From contig JAJZKP010000004.1 in the NCBI GenBank assembly GCA_021804105.1, positions 1 through 59,852 on the forward strand: a stretch of DNA of 59,852 nucleotides, read 5' to 3'. Numbering within the stretch: the first letter of the stretch is position 1; each line of letters starts with the position of its first letter. The translations under genes were made by a program, and so were the position numbers. Under the pieces are notes generated by a model. It was not told the origin of the DNA. It ran no database searches and saw only the letters and a program-made list of their open reading frames with translations. This DNA is from Candidatus Micrarchaeota archaeon (GTDB lineage: Archaea > Micrarchaeota > Micrarchaeia > Micrarchaeales > CABMGC01). Positions 8,984 to 59,852 of the stretch are shown one piece after another.

Positions 8984-9286
8984 ATGAGAGCTGAAGAACT
9001 GGCCAAGCGCCTTGATTCATATCCACTGACTCCGTTTCAGAAGCGCGTACTCGGGATTGTTGCGAGGATTCCAAGGGGAAAGACGCTAACATACAAGCAG
9101 GTTGCTGCCCTCGCAGGAAAGCCGAATGCATACAGGGCCGTCGGTACGGCTGTCCGGAATAACCCCTTGGCACCAATGATACCATGCCACAGGGTGGTAC
9201 GTTGTGATGGCATTGGGGATTACTCTGGAAAGGGCGGTCGCGCAGGGAAGATCAGGATGCTAAGAGCCGAGGGCGCTGTTATTTAG
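8984..9286 (+). CDS. ogt: Methylated-DNA-protein-cysteine methyltransferase (single-domain MGMT)
   Basis: IPRGKTLTY, RAVG.A...NP and active-site PCHRV. Confidence 0.9.
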   Translation: MRAEELAKRLDSYPLTPFQKRVLGIVARIPRGKTLTYKQVAALAGKPNAYRAVGTAVRNNPLAPMIPCHRVVRCDGIGDYSGKGGRAGKIRMLRAEGAVI

Positions 9287-52338: not shown

Positions 52339-52463
52339 TAGGTTTAAGAATATTGGTCAGCTATTCCCGTATGCTCCAGATCGTGTTGGAGATAATCCAT
52401 TGTAGAAGAAACAAATGATACTTTGATTTATGTGTTTTGCGTATTTGTTATAATGTGTTTGTT

Positions 52464-53390
52464 ATGATATTCATTCAGGAAGCGATATATAAGAATAAAC
52501 GATCGTCGCCATCTTTAAGTTCGAAGGGTAGACCTAAGGCCCAGTCTGCAATGGAATATCTGATGACATATGGATGGGCTATTCTCATAATAGCAATAGT
52601 TCTAGGTGTGCTCTACTACTTGGGCGTATTCAATGCCACTAATCTGGCACCGCATGCACAGCCAAGTAGTTGCCAGGTCTACAGGCCGAATGGGCCAGGG
52701 AGCCCTCAGTTCCTTTCGCTACAGGGCACATGCGGGCTTCTGCCAACGTATGTGGGTGCATTCGGTAGTGGTTCTGATATATATGGTTCTGTACCCACGC
52801 TGCAAACTGCTACAGGCACGTACGACACAGTTTCTTTCTGGATGTATTGGGCAGGGTCCAGCGGCGAAGTCGTATATGGAGAAGGCGGATCTACAGAGGA
52901 TGGATACACATTGTATTTCCCTAGCTATAACAACTGTTTTGGCTTTAACACAAACCATGGCGACCTGTATGGGGTAAACGCCTTGCCGCTTGCAAACAAG
53001 TGGGTATTTGTAACTGCAGTAATGTACAATGGTGGCTCCTACGTAGGCAATTCCCTGCTATACATAAATGGGGTAAGCCAAGCCCTGACCCAGTGCTCTG
53101 GAACAGCAGAAACCGGATTATCATATACACCATATAACATATCCTATCCAGGCTACTATTTCAATGGAAAGCTTTCTAACTTACAAGTGTATAACAGCTC
53201 GCTATCTGCAAATGACATAAAAGCGCTTTACAATGAAGGTATCGGAGGAGCCCCGCTTGATCTTGAGAATCTAGTTGCATGGATACCTCTCAATGGAAAT
53301 TCGGATGATTACTCTGGTAATCTAAATAGTGGTACGGCAACATCAGTCGCATATACAAGTTCATGGACATCTGGCTATTCTGCGCCTTAA
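52464..53390 (+). CDS. Pilin-like class III signal peptide protein with LamG/concanavalin-like domain
   Basis: KAQ/SAMEYLMTYGWA; TVSFW, W.FVT, LYING, F.G.LSNLQ.YN..LS..I..LY. Start uncertain (track 52437). Confidence 0.85.
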   Translation: MIFIQEAIYKNKRSSPSLSSKGRPKAQSAMEYLMTYGWAILIIAIVLGVLYYLGVFNATNLAPHAQPSSCQVYRPNGPGSPQFLSLQGTCGLLPTYVGAFGSGSDIYGSVPTLQTATGTYDTVSFWMYWAGSSGEVVYGEGGSTEDGYTLYFPSYNNCFGFNTNHGDLYGVNALPLANKWVFVTAVMYNGGSYVGNSLLYINGVSQALTQCSGTAETGLSYTPYNISYPGYYFNGKLSNLQVYNSSLSANDIKALYNEGIGGAPLDLENLVAWIPLNGNSDDYSGNLNSGTATSVAYTSSWTSGYSAP

Positions 53391-53490
53391 AGCAATGATC
53401 TGGAGAGCCTTAGATGCAGAGGTACTCTATAACGGTGGGTTCTAAAATAGGATATCTATTGGTGCAAGCATATCGGGGTGCTAAGTCCTA

Positions 53491-53542
53491 ACTCAAGCGC
53501 ATCGCCCGATGCACAAGATGCGCTACAGGCACATCTCCGACA
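53491..53542 (-). repeat. att-like junction 1: tRNA-Asn 3'-end core plus hairpin arm
   Basis: 53495-53513 is identical to 59728-59746 (19 nt); 53500-53542 matches 54958-55000 at 39/43. Confidence 0.85.
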
Positions 53543-53552
53543 GTGCATCTTT

Positions 53553-53610
53553 ATAATGTCTTTCAGAGAGGCAATATTTAAATATTTATGTCTTCTATAT
53601 AAGACATTAT
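53553..53610 (+). promoter_or_regulatory. Symmetric promoter/operator of the AAA+ ATPase gene
   Basis: ATAATGTCTT (53553) and AAGACATTAT (53601) are reverse complements; ATGTCTT-N6-AAGACAT at 53588-53607; palindromic AATATTTAAATATT contains the TATA box. Confidence 0.55.
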
Positions 53611-54928
53611 GAAAGAGGAGTTCCGCTACGTGGTAAGTGAATGGCTTGCTAGGAAGCTGCCTGAGACCGTAGCGAGAGATGTAAACATAGACCTAAATGC
53701 AGACAAGATAATAGCAATAGCAGGGGTAAGGCGTGCCGGCAAGACCTATCTACTTTTCGACACGATAAAGAAGCTGGCTGGAAGCGGCGTGCCTAGGGAA
53801 AACATGCTTTACATAAATTTTGATGATGATAGGCTGATGGGCCTGGCGAGTGGCGACCTTGATGACATACTAAGCGCTTACTACGAACTGGCGCAGCCTA
53901 AAAAGGATTCTGGCATTTTTTTGTTCTTGGATGAGATACAGAACGTGAAGAACTGGGAGCTGTGGGTAAGGAGAACATACGATTCGAAGAAATGCAGGAT
54001 ATTCATAACGGGATCTAGCTCTAAACTTCTAAGCAGAGAGATTGCCACTTCGCTGGTAGGAAGGAATATAACCTATGTGTTATACCCTTTCTCTTTCAGA
54101 GAGTTTCTCTCAGCAAAAGGCGTAAGGCTAGGGAAGGACATCTTGCATAGCTATGAACGTCATAGAGTAAATGCCTTGGCTAAGGAGTATATGACAAATG
54201 GCGGGTTTCCAGAAACGGCATTTGAAACGGATAGTGAGACAAAGAAGAGGACAATAAGCTCATATTACGATGCAATATTGTACAGGGATATAATAAGCAG
54301 ATATAGGGTTGAGGATGCGAACAGGCTGGAGATGGTCTTCAGATATGCAATTAACACGTATAGCAGCGGGTTCAGCACTGTGAAACTCTACAACTACTTC
54401 AAGAGCCAGAACCTTGGGATAAGCAGGCAGACTATAAGCAATTTTATCAAGTTCGGAGAACAGACGTTCCTCTTCTACCAGCTATTGCAATTCTTTAAGG
54501 GCTTCAAAAGATCCAATCAGTCCAGGAAGAAGTTATATGTTGTTGACAATGCAATAATAACTCTGCTGATATCTAGCCCAGAATACGGAAAATTGCTAGA
54601 AAATATAGTCCTGATTGAACTTCTACGTAGGAAGGAAAGAAACCCGTCTATCGAGCTAAATTACTTAAACAACAAAGAGGGTGAGGTTGATTTTGTAGTT
54701 TCAGAAGGCGGATCTATAAAAGAGCTTATACAGGTGACTTACGAACTTAATCAAAAGAACATGGAGAGGGAACTGAGACCTCTCTTAAGCGCGATGAAGG
54801 AGCTCAAGCCCGAGAGATGTGTGCTAATAACCTTCAATGCCATAGGCAGGGAAACGGTTGTGGAAAAGGGCGTAGAGGCATTGACATTTGTGCAATGGGC
54901 ACTAGGTGCTTACGATAGGAAGCTATAG
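53609..54928 (+). CDS. AAA+ ATPase, AAA_14/DUF4143 family
   Basis: GVRRAGKT, YINFDD, FLDEIQ, ITGSSS, PFSFREF, GGFPE, KKLY..D, LEN, EVDF. Confidence 0.92.
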   Translation: MKEEFRYVVSEWLARKLPETVARDVNIDLNADKIIAIAGVRRAGKTYLLFDTIKKLAGSGVPRENMLYINFDDDRLMGLASGDLDDILSAYYELAQPKKDSGIFLFLDEIQNVKNWELWVRRTYDSKKCRIFITGSSSKLLSREIATSLVGRNITYVLYPFSFREFLSAKGVRLGKDILHSYERHRVNALAKEYMTNGGFPETAFETDSETKKRTISSYYDAILYRDIISRYRVEDANRLEMVFRYAINTYSSGFSTVKLYNYFKSQNLGISRQTISNFIKFGEQTFLFYQLLQFFKGFKRSNQSRKKLYVVDNAIITLLISSPEYGKLLENIVLIELLRRKERNPSIELNYLNNKEGEVDFVVSEGGSIKELIQVTYELNQKNMERELRPLLSAMKELKPERCVLITFNAIGRETVVEKGVEALTFVQWALGAYDRKL

Positions 54929-54947
54929 CTTGTGTCATAGGAGCAGA

Positions 54948-55000
54948 ACTTGAAGGCCATCGCCCGAAGCACAAGATGTGCCACAGGCACATCCCCGACA
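54948..55000 (-). repeat. att-like junction 2: tRNA-Asn 3'-end core plus hairpin arm
   Basis: 54948-54971 matches 59723-59746 at 21/24; contains the perfect hairpin GATGTGCC-ACA-GGCACATC. Confidence 0.85.
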
Positions 55001-55113
55001 AGGAAGTTTTAAATAATGTGTTTTAATTGATGTAAATCGTATAGATTTATTTAAACATATAAGGAACGTACAGAGAAGGTAGGATACTAAAACATATTAG
55101 TATGGTCTGATTT

Positions 55114-55638
55114 ATGGCTAAAAACAAGCATTTAATTTTTACTATAGGCCACTCAACACATAAGCTTAGAGAATTTGTGAGGTTGCTGGACGCATACAAG
55201 ATAAAGGAATTAGTAGATATACGTACCATACCTAAATCTCGGGTCAATCCGCAGTTCAACGAGAAACGACTTGCTGCTGGCCTAAAGAGGCATCGCATAC
55301 GCTACATGCATATGAAAGGACTCGGAGGCCTCAGGCACCCGTTGAAGAACTCAGCCAATACATACTGGTACAATGCGTCATTCAGAGGTTTCGCAGACTA
55401 TATGCAGACCAGCGAGTTCAGAGAGAGTCTCATCGAGCTTATAAGCCTGGCAAAGAAAAGGCAGACGGCCATAATGTGTGCAGAGGCAGTGCCATGGAGA
55501 TGTCATAGATCGCTGATAGCAGATGCACTTCTCGTCAGGGGTGTGGATGTCAGACACATCTTCAGTCCAACCAATTCAAAATCACACGAGCTAACAAAAA
55601 GCGCAAGGGTGAACAGATTGAATATAGTGTATAAATAA
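55114..55638 (+). CDS. DUF488 family protein
   Basis: TIGHS, DIR..P.S, LGG.R, MCAE...W.CHR motifs. Confidence 0.9.
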   Translation: MAKNKHLIFTIGHSTHKLREFVRLLDAYKIKELVDIRTIPKSRVNPQFNEKRLAAGLKRHRIRYMHMKGLGGLRHPLKNSANTYWYNASFRGFADYMQTSEFRESLIELISLAKKRQTAIMCAEAVPWRCHRSLIADALLVRGVDVRHIFSPTNSKSHELTKSARVNRLNIVYK

Positions 55639-55643
55639 CCGGC

Positions 55644-56081
55644 ATGCAAGAGATAATCGGTGCGTTTATGGATAATGTTGCTGCAACGAGCAAGATGGTA
55701 AAGCTTTACATAGCTACGGGATTCTTGTATTTCGTAATCGGTACGATACTTCTTGCTTTTAGCATGTCAGGCGCAGTCGCTGTAAGTAGAGACCCGATAT
55801 TCATACTATTATTGTATGGCTTTGTCACACAGCTGATTTTTGGCGTTTCGTACATCTTCGTGCCTGGAGTTTCCCGACATAGCGGGGCCAATTACAAGGC
55901 AATAATTGCAGAATACATTCTTCTGAATTCAGGGATAATTGTATTTGAGGGTGTTGCACTTACTGGCCGGAAGGATGTTGTGGTGCTACTTGGAGGTCTA
56001 ATAGCGTTAATTATAGCTGTCCTGCTGCATGCAATTAACATATGGCACACGATAATTGGCAGGAAAAAAGGTACGGTGTGA
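55644..56081 (+). CDS. Four-TM membrane protein, distantly heme-copper-oxidase-subunit-I-like
   Basis: L.GF..Q.I.G..Y...P motif and four hydrophobic segments. Confidence 0.55.
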   Translation: MQEIIGAFMDNVAATSKMVKLYIATGFLYFVIGTILLAFSMSGAVAVSRDPIFILLLYGFVTQLIFGVSYIFVPGVSRHSGANYKAIIAEYILLNSGIIVFEGVALTGRKDVVVLLGGLIALIIAVLLHAINIWHTIIGRKKGTV

Positions 56082-56385
56082 TTATAACATTATGTCATCC
56101 TGTCCAACGCTTCATTCCTTGCCTTGTCATCTATATAATCGTCAATCAATGGGCATATGTCTCCCTCTCCATCTTATGATGCCCTATCGCCAGCTGCTCC
56201 AGATTCGTCTCCGGTTCATATCTCTGTTCTTTAATCTTGTAAATATTCTGTTTAAATCACACTTATCTTATGGTGCTGCAATACCTGCCCGCCTATCATT
56301 GCCGAACCTTCTTCCAGCCTCTGTTTGGCGTGAGTGGCGTATAGCAATTTAAATGGTTTAGTCGCATATTAGTATAGGGGGTTAG

Positions 56386-59300
56386 GTGGTATTGCCCATA
56401 ACCAGAAAGAGTCCAAACTACATTATTATTCTAATTGCTGCAGTGTCGGTAGCCATAATTGCTGTGTTCCTACTTACAATTAGGTTACAGGGAACACCAC
56501 AGGCAGAAAATCTTAGCATGCCAGACCCTTATACTCATCTTGGCAATGCCTCGTTCGCGCTGGTTGCTCCATATAATGTTTTGTCAGCTAATGGCAGGTT
56601 CGCATCACTGGCAAGCGAGAGATATGATTTCAGGTACACCGACGCAGCGAATTTCACAAGTGTAGAGAACTCCACATTCATAGTAATTGTAGTAAACAGT
56701 AGTAGCGGTGCGTACGCGCAACTTGCAACGAAAGCCATCAATATCACAGAGCTTGACAGTGCTCTGAATTACACAAAAGGCGCAATGATAAGCAAGTATA
56801 ATGTATGGGGTTCCGCACAGACCGTCTTTCTGTTAATAGGATATAATGCAAGCTCGCTTTCTTCAGCTCTGTTGAGTTTTTTTGTTAAAAGCCCTGTCTA
56901 CGCCCCAAAGCAGTTTAGCGTAAGGTTCGTGAATGAGAGCGGCAAGGCACCTGGTGATCCCGTAATGGATGCGGTTCTTGACGGCACTTATGAGCTCAGT
57001 CCACATGACAGCGCACTTCCATACCCCTACAGCTATTACGATAACTTTGCATACCTGATATATTATGCTCCTGTGATAACTTCGATAGTTCCTGGATTTG
57101 AAGGCAACAGTTCAGGTTCTGGATTGCCGCTGTCTGCTCCAATATGCATGCCGCCTCCTCCTCCCCCTGGAGGCGGTTCATCGATGTGCATAGGCGATTA
57201 TGCTGCGATGCCAATGCTGCAGGTAGGAAGTGCGCCCCCTTTACGTCCGCAGTGGAGCTATGATACTGGAGACTGCGAGTTCTTTGGCATAGATGACTGC
57301 ATAGATGCTGAGGGCTGGGCTGCTTCGGGCCTGAACCCGCAGCTTCCCTACAGAGAGATACCAAGCGTCTACTTCGGAGTCACTTTTACTGGAAGCCCTG
57401 TTCCTCCTTCGATGGATGGCACATTTGGCCCCGTGTCGGACAGCCTCCCAATCACCTGGTGGGTTTATGGGCCGAGCTCGTTCGGAGAATCGACCGGAGG
57501 GTTTCAATCAAGCCTATCTGGGGTTATGAACGAGTCTGAGACTGCGCTGCTGATCAACGCAGGCGTTGATATGTTCTCTGCACCCATAGGCGAAACCCCA
57601 GTCGGCAATTTTACCGTATACAACGCAACAAACTCCTCTTCTACGTATTCGTGCGGCAGCGAAATATGCGGGATGAAATTCAACTACACCATATACGCGC
57701 TCCTTAACATATCATCCACGATACCAGGGGACGCATCGGTGGCGTCTCCGCGGGGATACTCGCCAAACCCGCAGCTTAACTATTCGCCTGTGCTGGAACC
57801 TGTGTCGCTCTCCACGCCCAAGATTGTGAAAACCTCTGCGCAGACATACTACTTCAGTTACTGGAGTGTCTACTCCGAGCTGGCAGGCAACCAATACTAC
57901 AAAAAATACAGCACGTCAAATATAACATTCCAGCTTATAGGGCCCACGCAGGCCAGGGCTATATACACAACAAATACTACTGCGGCCAACGGCCCTGGCA
58001 ATGTTATAATATACAGTGATTATATTCCTATGTTCCAGTTTGGGTCATGTTCTAACAACCCTGCAAACTGCACAAAGTATGGGAGTTATTACCGGATACC
58101 AAATGTCTCTGTGTCCATATCGATACCTGGGGGGAAGGAGGTATTTTCAGGAGCCACAAACGCAACGGCAATGGCAGTTACTGGAAAGCTTGCAGGCGGG
58201 TGCTACAATATCGCAGTCTCTAAGCAGGGTTACAATCTTTTCGCAGATCCGAATCCGCTATGCGTCAACGGCGTAACATCGTTGTTCCTAGTCGATACGG
58301 ATCCCTATATATTTGATATAACGTGGCCTTCATCATATCCGTATGCACTTGCGCCTGTCAACGGCACTATACCAATTAACGTATCCGTGCGCTACGCCAG
58401 CACCGGTGCATCTGCAGGAAATTCCTCGAGGTATCTGTATGCACACACCACTTCAGGCGTAATGGAAGGATACTCTTCTGGGCGCATAGTAAACGGCTAT
58501 TCAAACCTCTCAGCAAATGGAACTGCAGACTTTTTGTGGGAGGTTGGCAAAACTCCAGGGATGCACGTGATAAACTTTACAATCGGCGTGGGATGGCCCA
58601 TACTGTCGGAATCCTACTCTATGCCGGTGGTTGCCTATTCCGGCAATTATTTGAGGACAGAGTTGAACATAAGCCTTTCAAATACAACAGAATACGCTTC
58701 TCCGGGAGAGTCTTTCGCTGACAACATAACCGTAAGACTGTGCAGAACGTATCTTATTTCAAACAGGTCGCTGCCCTGTATGCCCTTAATGCCGTATGCT
58801 TCAAACATGTCTTTGATATACGTGAATGACAGGCCGGCCAACACTACTGCAGTATTTGTACCGGATCCAGCCCCTGCAAATTCAGAATCATTAAGCGACA
58901 TGGCATCCTTACGTATATCTCTAGGCAGTGGTGTGCGAAATGGCCTGTATGTAGCCAGGATAACTTCAGTTATGCATACTTCCAATGCAACATACAATTC
59001 AACTGTGCCGCTGCTGATATATGTACCTAAAAATACATCTGCGAACAACAGCACGACAACCATACCGCCAACAAGTATATCAACCACAACAATACCTATT
59101 GTTTCAGGATATGGGGCGCTTAACATAAATGTGTTTTTCAATGGCGCTCCTGCCCCTGCTGCTGAAGTAGGTGCATTCTCGCCAGGCATACAAACTTACA
59201 GTGGATGGTACACTAATTCGAACGGCGAATACTATACTGGATATATAATACCACCTGGCAGCTACGAGGTTGATGGCACCTATCACAATATAACCAATAG

Positions 59301-59574
59301 CACGAACTATCTTAACGTCAGCGCGGGGAAAGTGACATACGTTGATATATACATTTATGGCACTGTAAACACAACTACAACGTCATCTACAACCACCACA
59401 ACTTCGATAACATCTACCTCTTCCACAAGCACTATGCCGTCTTCTACCACTACTGTGCAATCCGGCTATTACGAATGCAATGTGTGTTATAAAGTGATTG
59501 AGGCTGGATTTACCTGCCCATCAACATGCCCTACATCAGTATTGTGCAACTACGGCGGTTTTAAATGCACCTAA
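56386..59574 (+). CDS. Large membrane-anchored surface (glyco)protein
   Basis: N-terminal TM, many N-x-S/T sequons, beta-sandwich/carboxypeptidase-regulatory-like segments (Y.I.VSK.GY; TNSNG.Y...PG.Y), Thr-rich tracts, C-terminal six-Cys domain. Confidence 0.8.
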   Translation: MVLPITRKSPNYIIILIAAVSVAIIAVFLLTIRLQGTPQAENLSMPDPYTHLGNASFALVAPYNVLSANGRFASLASERYDFRYTDAANFTSVENSTFIVIVVNSSSGAYAQLATKAINITELDSALNYTKGAMISKYNVWGSAQTVFLLIGYNASSLSSALLSFFVKSPVYAPKQFSVRFVNESGKAPGDPVMDAVLDGTYELSPHDSALPYPYSYYDNFAYLIYYAPVITSIVPGFEGNSSGSGLPLSAPICMPPPPPPGGGSSMCIGDYAAMPMLQVGSAPPLRPQWSYDTGDCEFFGIDDCIDAEGWAASGLNPQLPYREIPSVYFGVTFTGSPVPPSMDGTFGPVSDSLPITWWVYGPSSFGESTGGFQSSLSGVMNESETALLINAGVDMFSAPIGETPVGNFTVYNATNSSSTYSCGSEICGMKFNYTIYALLNISSTIPGDASVASPRGYSPNPQLNYSPVLEPVSLSTPKIVKTSAQTYYFSYWSVYSELAGNQYYKKYSTSNITFQLIGPTQARAIYTTNTTAANGPGNVIIYSDYIPMFQFGSCSNNPANCTKYGSYYRIPNVSVSISIPGGKEVFSGATNATAMAVTGKLAGGCYNIAVSKQGYNLFADPNPLCVNGVTSLFLVDTDPYIFDITWPSSYPYALAPVNGTIPINVSVRYASTGASAGNSSRYLYAHTTSGVMEGYSSGRIVNGYSNLSANGTADFLWEVGKTPGMHVINFTIGVGWPILSESYSMPVVAYSGNYLRTELNISLSNTTEYASPGESFADNITVRLCRTYLISNRSLPCMPLMPYASNMSLIYVNDRPANTTAVFVPDPAPANSESLSDMASLRISLGSGVRNGLYVARITSVMHTSNATYNSTVPLLIYVPKNTSANNSTTTIPPTSISTTTIPIVSGYGALNINVFFNGAPAPAAEVGAFSPGIQTYSGWYTNSNGEYYTGYIIPPGSYEVDGTYHNITNSTNYLNVSAGKVTYVDIYIYGTVNTTTTSSTTTTTSITSTSSTSTMPSSTTTVQSGYYECNVCYKVIEAGFTCPSTCPTSVLCNYGGFKCT

Positions 59575-59735
59575 GGCGTCGGCGCGTTACGGCAGTGCAA
59601 GGCACGCGTGTAAGTTTTATGTAACGGCACATCGTTAGGCATATTGAGGTACTTTGCGCCTAGTGGCCTTATTCTGGAGACCAGCTTTTAGGGGAAGGAC
59701 GCAGAAAGGTAGTGGGGGCCGTACTTGAAGCGCAT

Positions 59736-59807
59736 CGCCCGATGCAGGGATCGAACCTGCGACATCCTGGTTAACAGCCAAGCGCTCTACCACTGAGCTA
59801 ATCGGGC
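59736..59807 (-). tRNA. tRNA-Asn(GTT)
   Basis: GCCCGAT...ATCGGGC-G acceptor, CTTGG-CT-GTT-AA-CCAGG anticodon arm, GCAGG-TTCGATC-CCTGC T-arm; no encoded CCA. Confidence 0.96.
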
Positions 59808-59852
59808 ATTTTGAAGAATGGGAACGGCTCTGCGAGCTTTACTATCTTGATG

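Follow-up and report, generated by a model that had tools for sequence, protein, structure and literature searches.

DPANN archaea have reduced genomes in which few mobile elements are recognised. What, then, placed copies of a tRNA 3′ end between the genes at one end of a contig of Candidatus Micrarchaeota archaeon, and do these genes still move? We analysed a window of 59,852 nt that is the entire contig C18 (JAJZKP010000004.1) of assembly GCA_021804105.1, which consists of 34 contigs, totals 805 kb and is 75% complete. An earlier note on this sequence had proposed that a tRNA-Asn gene anchors an array of integrase-less gene cassettes, separated by recombination sites and captured serially by a recombinase acting in trans. 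We find that the segment 53488-59746 is probably a tRNA-Asn-anchored island. The explanation that we favour, and consider likely, is that small circular elements with a common attachment (att) site, attP, integrated there repeatedly and site-specifically, and that their integrase-less derivatives still move.

The copies of the tRNA-Asn 3′ end and its trailer that the earlier note described are real. The 19-mer AAGCGCATCGCCCGATGCA is exact at 53495-53513 and at 59728-59746 and has 3 mismatches at 54953-54971; three matches to it were reached in 0 of 100 shuffles. By eye, 54948-54971 and 59723-59746 are identical at 21 of 24 positions, and GCATCGCCCGATGC begins at 53499 and 59732. The two non-tRNA copies have a further arm in common, found in the window only at 53512-53542 and 54970-55000, and alignment of the two junctions reproduced the reported identity of 39/43. 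A search of all 34 contigs showed no scatter of the junction: the core has a single further copy, at one end of contig C19, where it belongs to the same tRNA, and the arm occurred nowhere else. A lenient profile scan of the window with all filters off returned exactly three sites (Table 1). They are direct repeats of the tRNA 3′ end in one orientation, with the intact tRNA at one end, which supports reading them as junctions of the recombination type for which the tRNA-Asn 3′ end is the anchor. The core of the second site, TCGCCCGAAGCA, is one base off from the tRNA of its own genome (A where the tRNA has T), which would fit a site made in, or imported from, a host with the other tRNA allele.

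We built the profile of the att site from the tRNA-Asn neighbourhoods of 16 relatives, comprising 20 stretches. The window and these stretches contain 30 sites that bear the arm on the far side of the core (P′ arm), 2 of them in the window, and 10 further profile matches are of the tRNA-proximal or a partial form. Internal sites are present in 11 of the 16 relatives, and every internal site retains the 12-nt tRNA core. All sites share one orientation with respect to the tRNA; the single match on the opposite strand has an E-value of 0.09. At least 73 nt are conserved. The consensus begins with a P arm of ~25-45 nt (G-N5-ACYTGAAG-SGCA), continues with the core (O), 12 nt reading TCGCCCGAWGCA that comprise the final 11 nt of the tRNA and one further base, and ends with a P′ arm of ~45 nt (CAAGATGYGC-N3-5-GGCRCATCTCCGACAAGGA, then TTTTTATA or TTTTAAA) that closes in a TATA-like box. 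Many sites also have a CTTGTG box ~37-40 nt before the core that mirrors the ACAAGG of the P′ arm, so that the whole site is roughly 95 nt long and quasi-palindromic. Two unoccupied tRNAs (G005 and G002) have only TCGCCCGATGCA or CGCCCGATGCA in common with the sites, and a conservative strand exchange would therefore have to fall within those 12 nt.

These sites are widespread in the order. When the last 11.9 kb of the window were compared with 30 relatives, the junction was 81-89% identical even in another family, and the cassettes were reordered. Of the 248 genomes of the order, 35 have the exact O-P′ pattern; they belong to 19 of 60 genera and to both large families, and a reversed control pattern was found in none of the 248 genomes. 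A collection of species representatives yielded 42 stretches with the pattern, 38 of which the profile confirmed; these counts may overlap with the 35 genomes and are not independent tallies. Wherever the tRNA is on the stretch, which is so for 17 of the 38 short stretches and most of the fetched loci, the sites lie downstream of tRNA-Asn. Four of the 42 stretches (L035, L062, L067 and L073) have bacterial titles, and the profile placed their matches at chance level. In the Joint Genome Institute (JGI) metagenomes the pattern occurred in 5 stretches. L075 is the only genuine case; the remaining four, at 67-70% G+C, score 12-14 bits against the profile or, in the case of L076, have no reported match, and we attribute them to chance. 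The viral collection contained no stretch with the pattern.

Some sites and arrays depart from the common form. Three assemblies titled Marsarchaeota (L044, L051 and L064) contain true att sites. In L064 the flanking genes are in the order seen at Micrarchaeota loci, with 34-55% protein identity, which makes the Marsarchaeota label or the binning doubtful. Partial tRNA-Asn copies of 44-55 nt, exceeding the 11-nt core, lie inside the arrays of L017 (G003:C96), L094 (G079:C32) and L025 (G024:C3), and two of them precede an AbiEi/AbiEii pair; some elements apparently include more of the tRNA. A second array of G023, L019 (G023:C34), opens with a copy of the tRNA-Asn trailer native to that genome, closes with a P arm and core that run into non-tRNA sequence, and looks like a translocated or rearranged array. 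L029 (G029:C1) has DUF488, hemerythrin, P-type ATPase and PadR genes between tRNA-Lys and tRNA-Asn with no recognisable att sites, and may be an old array with eroded sites.

The two sides of the tRNA-Asn gene behave differently across the relatives. On its 5′ side, two genes (clusters cl1 and cl0, neither with a Pfam family) are syntenic in all fetched relatives, whereas the content of the 3′ side is different in every one. G005 and G002 have a tRNA-Asn without P arm and without cassettes, which we regard as unoccupied sites; in G005 the left neighbour is the same Na+/H+ exchanger. The array of the sister genome G010 has four cassettes, carrying a P-type ATPase with PadR and one unknown gene, a surface protein with AHSA1, a different ATPase allele, and DUF488 with a membrane protein and hemerythrin. 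G001 has the DUF488 cassette ahead of the ATPase cassette, in G009 the ATPase cassette adjoins tRNA-Asn, G023 of the other family has four cassettes including the DUF488 one, and G077 has five sites within 3 kb. Other cargo in the relatives includes a CitMHS transporter, RibD_C, AHSA1, AbiEi/AbiEii, Fic and type I restriction-modification genes. Cassette content and order are thus variable rather than invariant among the relatives, with empty sites in two of them.

A sign of movement comes from the first cassette of the window, a 1.46-kb unit with one ATPase gene. From att to att it is 95-97% identical in G001, G003 and G009 of the same genus and in G079 and G093 of two other genera; with this genome (G000) it is therefore present in 6 of the 248 genomes of the order and in three genera. 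The chromosomal flank is only 66-72% identical within the same genus (G001, G002, G005, G006, G008, G011) and 92% identical in the sister G010. The left and right neighbours of the cassette are different in each genome, and its high identity stops at the same points in all six copies. Since 538 of 718 differences in the coding sequence (CDS) are at third codon positions, the ATPase gene is under purifying selection. The ATPase allele of G010 gave no blastn match to the cassette, and its protein is 97.7% identical between G010 and G093. The DUF488 cassette is 84-86% identical at the nucleotide level in G010, G001, G018 and G023, which represent three genera and two families. With the same boundaries, different order and neighbours across species and near-identity across genera, the units behave as cassettes, as the earlier note had called them.

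Within the window, the 1.4-kb unit with one ATPase gene stands as first described. Complete sites flank it, and the stop codon is 20 nt away from the P arm as defined by the profile; we found no further copies of this ATPase in the genome. PADLOC assigns the protein to the candidate defence family PDC-S01 (6.1e-110) and a protein of the second unit to PDC-M45B, in agreement with the suggestion that the cargo includes defence candidates. The second unit had been described as one 4.7-kb cassette with three genes. The homology breaks and the gene remnant listed in Table 1 show it to be two cassettes instead, fused by a deletion that removed the att site between them. In relatives an intact hemerythrin gene closes the DUF488 cassette, and in G010 the 1062-aa surface protein is encoded in a separate att-bounded cassette (84.8% over 3168 nt). 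A zero-difference contig of the public run X2 spans the fusion (56068-56563).

Table 1. Coordinates of the attachment sites, genes and remnants at the tRNA-Asn end of the window
Feature	Position	Strand	Evidence and remarks
att site 1, array distal end	53488-53555	+	Profile E=2e-19; degenerate P-arm-like left side, core AAGCGCATCGCCCGATGCA 53495-53513, P′ arm CACAAGATGCGCTACAGGCACATCTCCGACA, TATA-like box
Cassette 1, ATPase (AAA_14 + DUF4143)	53609-54928	+	Pfam 3.5e-40, 2.4e-18
att site 2, complete P-O-P′	54929-55013	+	Profile 54943-55013, E=3e-22; CTTGTG box, P arm ending ACTTGAAGGCCA, core TCGCCCGAAGCA, P′ arm, TATA-like box
Cassette 2a, DUF488 protein	55114-55638	+	Pfam; PADLOC candidate PDC-M45B
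Cassette 2a, small membrane protein	55644-56081	+	No Pfam family; always after DUF488 in relatives
Hemerythrin gene remnant	56093-56211	-	tblastn, residues 175-214 of 214; Pfam of intact relative
Fusion point	56325-56329		DUF488-cassette homology stops ~56329, within the hemerythrin gene; G010 surface-protein-cassette homology starts 56325
Cassette 2b, Thr-rich surface-type protein, 1062 aa	56386-59574	+	Weak CarboxypepD_reg match only
att site 3, tRNA-proximal, P arm + core	59718-59746	+	GCCGTACTTGAAGCGCA + TCGCCCGATGCA
tRNA-Asn(GTT)	59736-59807	-	Rfam, 72 bits; ARAGORN 59735-59808; last 11 nt form the right part of the core; contig end 45 nt beyond

Which enzyme could act on these sites? The earlier note had recognised no recombinase, and our searches of the assembled, 75% complete genome agree. 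A PF00589 scan found no integrase in the window or in C19, the contig that overlaps the last 127 nt of the window and continues the chromosome past tRNA-Asn. The genome has two PF00589 genes, on C14 and C23, both adjoining other tRNAs, and the best tblastn match to the cognate integrase described below, at 24% identity (E=0.009), was to the integrase beside tRNA-Glu. The C14 gene (C14:1907-2479, minus strand) adjoins tRNA-Glu(TTC) on a contig of 5.8 kb with lower G+C. The C23 gene (C23:28552-29118, plus strand) adjoins a class II tRNA that ARAGORN calls Leu(CAG) without introns and Ser(TGA) with an intron. Both recombinases probably belong to other integrated elements.

The earlier note had advised looking for a tyrosine recombinase beyond the window, and a fitting one is present in relatives, against the tRNA-Asn site. 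A PF00589 survey of 31 genomes revealed an open frame of 440 aa in G006, at a distance of 500 nt from tRNA-Asn. The integrase has 408 aa, with a PF00589 match of 1.7e-21 and a C-terminal zinc ribbon; among solved structures the closest relative is Pyrococcus abyssi XerA (E=5e-11), and by eye the R, HxxR and Y residues align. It is encoded by the last gene of a 13-kb element that extends from a full att site to the tRNA-proximal site, together with hsdR, hsdM, hsdS, a winged helix-turn-helix protein with weak, sub-threshold PCNA matches and a ribbon-helix-helix protein. The integrase frame is whole in G006 and G106 and starts ~49 nt outside the P arm. Orthologues that are full-length or nearly so occur in 4 of the 248 genomes: G006, G106 (94%), G215 (95%, covering residues 1-393 before the contig end cuts it) and G090 (79%). 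The G090 element is 11 kb long, is bounded by a full att site and carries type I restriction-modification-like genes. Broken or truncated orthologues were found in G112, G062, a second G106 contig and L069, and N-terminal stubs of 47-84 residues in G093, G098, G124 and G123. The position of the gene is constant: orthologues with at least 79% identity abut the tRNA-Asn P-O site in 5 of 5 further loci (G106, G215, G090, G112 and L069). Paralogues with 27-36% identity each lie beside another tRNA (Glu, Gln, Val, Asp, Ala, Arg, Tyr or Thr), and with such enzymes beside eight other tRNAs in the relatives the habit may be general. We found no relative of the integrase in the viral collection, nor in the JGI metagenomes when these were searched with single-sequence peptide patterns.

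N-terminal remnants of the integrase, 17-97 residues long and 82-89% identical, lie beside the P arms in L048, L054/L099, L063 and G009, and indicate that the cassettes descend from integrase-bearing elements. In G009 the integrase-less ATPase cassette lies between such a remnant and the tRNA, which fits its arrival after an integrase-bearing element. The earlier note had named decayed remnants of ordinary integrase islands as a reading that would overturn its proposal. The descent from integrase-bearing elements holds, because truncated integrase N-termini lie at the same cassette end in relatives; decay in place hardly accounts for the cassettes as we see them. If the array were a row of dead scars, remnants of integrated plasmids or viruses that decayed where they stood, were inherited vertically and are immobile now, the integrase remnants at the ends of several cassettes and the deletion and fusion inside the window would be expected, and archaeal elements that lose their integrase after integration are recorded in the extract of PMC8371274. 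However, a complete att-to-att unit that is far more similar across three genera than the flanks are within one genus is hard to reconcile with vertical inheritance, another allele occupies the locus in the sister G010, the contexts differ from genome to genome, and independent decay is not expected to leave identical boundaries. We therefore regard dead scars as very improbable.

The mechanism that we favour would work as follows. Small circular elements would share one attP composed of the P arm, the 12-nt core and the P′ arm. The enzyme would be the 408-aa tyrosine integrase, whose gene would be the last of each complete element, next to the tRNA. A new element would enter at the tRNA by strand exchange inside the core, restore the tRNA and displace older elements outward. 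Older elements would drop the integrase and retain both att sites, and integrase-less units such as the ATPase cassette could still be excised as circles and move between arrays and species, with a complete element, co-resident or transient, providing the integrase in trans. Such units might travel alone or within a composite excised from the outer sites. This genome would then hold an orphan array of three sites, with one clean cassette and one fused unit of two cassettes.

Several observations weigh against this mechanism, and some of them favour a rival. We used 20 public runs, all as Logan contigs, which are assembled and contain no read starts, read ends or circles; in these runs we found no circle, empty-site read or excision junction, and parts of the window that they leave uncovered are uninformative. 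Within the assembled part of the 35 att-bearing genomes, only two (G006 and G090) have a full-length cognate integrase. G009, which is 94% complete, has cassettes but a 17-residue integrase remnant, and elsewhere one 216-aa open frame that matches PF00589. The ATPase and DUF488 cassettes have a several-fold higher summed contig depth than the flanks, and the path of the window, a metagenome contig, through these two cassettes could be chimeric; the order of ATPase then DUF488 is also seen in G093. Finally, the six ATPase cassettes have a mean identity, over their 15 pairs, of 96.4% in the CDS, 93.4% in the leader, 81.2% in the P′ arm and 67.3% in the P arm. The similarity of the arms does not track that of the CDS, and the arms have genome-specific signatures. 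An exchange confined to the core would keep the arms with the cargo. The att copies must therefore undergo gene conversion or homologous recombination as well.

Homologous recombination might even drive the exchange altogether. The integrase would then have made only the ancient first insertions, and the att sites (73-95 nt) would serve as portable homology with which foreign DNA that is taken up replaces, or inserts, whatever sits between two copies. Arms that are unlinked from their cargo are what this predicts, and they are the chief evidence for it. The contrast between P arm and CDS in the means above recurs in single pairs, such as G009 and G001 with a CDS identity of 98.8% and a P-arm identity of 72%, and the arms are homogenised within genomes, the three sites of G079 having one unusual P arm and the three of G001 another. 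The 33 of 35 att-bearing genomes without a full-length cognate integrase would also be accounted for. Nevertheless, the 12-nt core and the orientation are kept at every internal site, the reshuffled order and variable copy number need insertion and excision and not replacement, and the six ATPase copies end their identity at the same points. The integrase orthologues, 94-95% identical across genera and families, are therefore mobile at present. On balance we think it unlikely that homologous recombination is the driver, and keep site-specific integration as the preferred explanation, with recombination between att copies as an added process.

The public-run contigs also contain joints that differ from the window. 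In one X6 contig the ATPase cassette adjoins the tRNA, an arrangement that G003 and G009 also have, and one contig each of X6 and X7 has a second copy of the end of the membrane protein gene after the surface protein gene. These are best read as arrangements of other strains or organisms, or as repeats. We did not use the joints 53542>54960, 55015>59715 and 58880>59715, nor joints of 45-46 nt that lead back, owing to short sides or unknown letters in between. The break in the assembly between C18 and C19 falls exactly at tRNA-Asn (window 59726-59852), where the summed contig depth is at least 50-fold above that of the flanks; both fit a branch point common to many strains and species.

Two features that the earlier note had described in the sites, a perfect hairpin and a perfect dyad, turned out to be local accidents. 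Of the eight base pairs of the hairpin GATGTGCC-ACA-GGCACATC, all are complementary in 2 of the 30 P′-bearing sites. The variable Y:R pair can form in 12 of 30, against ~14 of 30 expected by chance from the base frequencies, and the last pair in 9 of 30. With no covariation of pairing, the element (GATGYGC...GCRCATC in the P′ arm) is an imperfect palindrome that is conserved, and it resembles a protein-binding site more than a hairpin under selection. The dyad GCATCG-CC-CGATGC hinges on one base of the tRNA, which is T in 8 and A in 6 of the 16 tRNA-proximal sites. In the tRNA-proximal core, 8 of 16 genomes accordingly have GATGC, 6 have GAAGC and 2 have other sequences, which limits the perfect dyad to some tRNA alleles. 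We therefore rejected hairpin and dyad as functional structures.

Could the repeat instead be a promoter or operator module, or a small RNA gene, that was duplicated with its genes and is no recombination site? The TATA-like box that ends the P′ arm follows a purine-rich stretch, the palindrome would suit an operator, and in 17 of the 25 P′-bearing sites tallied by eye the next gene is on the same strand. A second TATA-like box lies 25 nt before the ATPase start codon, and on the P-arm side of G006 there is a TATAAA ~30 nt upstream of the integrase start. Judged by these motifs, the cassettes appear to carry their own promoters, and the two att ends may carry divergent ones. As an account of the repeat itself, however, a regulatory or RNA module is extremely improbable: the tRNA 3′ end is part of every copy and the copies follow tRNA-Asn where this is on the stretch, the hairpin does not covary, and the att element matches no Rfam family, the tRNA being the sole above-threshold match of the Rfam scan.

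We compared the array with known systems, in each case as far as extracts of the cited sources describe them. The best reading is tandem accretion with mobile integrase-less derivatives, like cis-mobilisable elements (CIMEs) or tycheposon islands. CIMEs and their tandem accretion at the attachment sites of integrative and conjugative or mobilisable elements were modelled on ICESt1/ICESt3 of Streptococcus thermophilus (PMC5704250). As in our arrays, integration takes place at a gene's 3′ end, the integration genes are lost by decay while both att sites stay, a later element enters at the gene-end site to give tandems, and composites can move together. By this definition the ATPase cassette is a CIME, with integration genes lost and both att sites kept. 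The arrays described here differ in being archaeal, mostly of one to three genes per unit and up to four or five units deep, with no conjugation module; their integrase-less units are near-identical across genera, and their short att site is conserved in sequence across two families. Tycheposons of Prochlorococcus form tRNA-anchored islands with partial tRNAs and fragmented integrases (10.1101/2020.12.28.424599). They likewise occupy small streamlined genomes, use tyrosine recombinases each tied to one tRNA, carry niche-adaptation cargo, and have incoming elements that displace older ones inward. However, they carry an integrase and usually a replication module, whereas the cassettes of the window hold neither, and in this archaeal lineage most units lack both, keep complete att sites and spread. 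This likeness is drawn from the description of tycheposons.

Archaeal elements that integrate at tRNA genes are closer in lineage (PMC8371274 and PMC6563490). Their tyrosine integrase also lies beside the tRNA 3′ end and is left intact and unsplit by integration, and tandem reuse of sites and loss of the integrase are on record, but these elements are multi-gene, ~2.6-98 kb long and each defined by its integrase. The extracts of these two papers do not describe arrays of single-gene integrase-less cassettes common to several genera. SSV-type elements differ in that their attP lies inside the integrase frame, whereas the frame in G006 and G106 is unsplit and lies outside the P arm. With integrons (for those of archaea, abstract of 10.1101/2022.02.06.479319) the arrays share mostly single-gene units in one orientation, recombination sites between them, a reshuffled order and adaptive cargo. 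Here, in contrast, no integrase is fixed at the array, the tRNA end is the insertion point, and the sites are conserved in sequence across two families and not as folded hairpins. The earlier note's term, an integron-like system, does not hold in this sense, as there is neither an array-resident integrase nor a structure-defined attC and the hairpin lacks covariation.

Tandem reuse of tRNA sites, integrase loss, CIME accretion and tRNA-anchored islands with fragmented integrases are thus already described, as far as these extracts go. In full-text literature on integrases and tRNAs, genomic islands and attachment sites in Micrarchaeota, we found no description of such arrays. What appears new, none having been found in print, is a DPANN system of compact integrase-less cassettes with a short att site conserved across two families and near-identity across genera. 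In the extract of one survey, no provirus is reported in 1356 Micrarchaeota genomes (PMC13573593). The locus offers a concrete, testable route for gene exchange across genera and families, with cargo that ranges from defence candidates (the PDC-S01 ATPase, DUF488, AbiE and type I restriction-modification) to metal resistance (a P-type ATPase and PadR), transporters and surface proteins. A named integrase and its defined site, at least 73 nt long, could provide a genetic tool for organisms without any.

A bolder extension is tentative, and we give it somewhat less than an even chance. Under it, the locus would be a lineage-wide capture platform of single-gene cassettes, with a quasi-palindromic att site, outward promoters and a rare tRNA-Asn integrase supplied in trans, resembling an integron without a resident integrase. 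If so, the tRNA-Asn locus would be an exchangeable defence and resistance island across genera and families, and genes would flow into and out of these reduced genomes mainly through the platform.

Other repeats and neighbours of the array deserve mention. To its left lies a gene for a LamG-domain protein (52437-53390) that has five paralogues with 35-48% identity on C26, C16, C34 and C21; a profile scan with all filters off found no extra att remnant left of this gene. The 16-mer ATCCCCGACAAGGAAG in the P′ arm of the second site (54991-55006) is exactly common to a second repeat family, TCACCTATCCCCGACAAGGAAGCCCAYGCTCTTTAG, with copies on C4 (minus strand, ~14336), C6 (minus strand, ~20450) and C8 (plus strand, ~11860). 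The C4 copy directly follows an intron-bearing tRNA-Ala(TGC), and the C6 and C8 copies are longer and without a tRNA; this family may be the att arm of a related family of elements. On contig C29 of this genome, the last 14 nt of a tRNA-His (9179-9251, minus strand) recur 1294 nt downstream and may mark another small islet.

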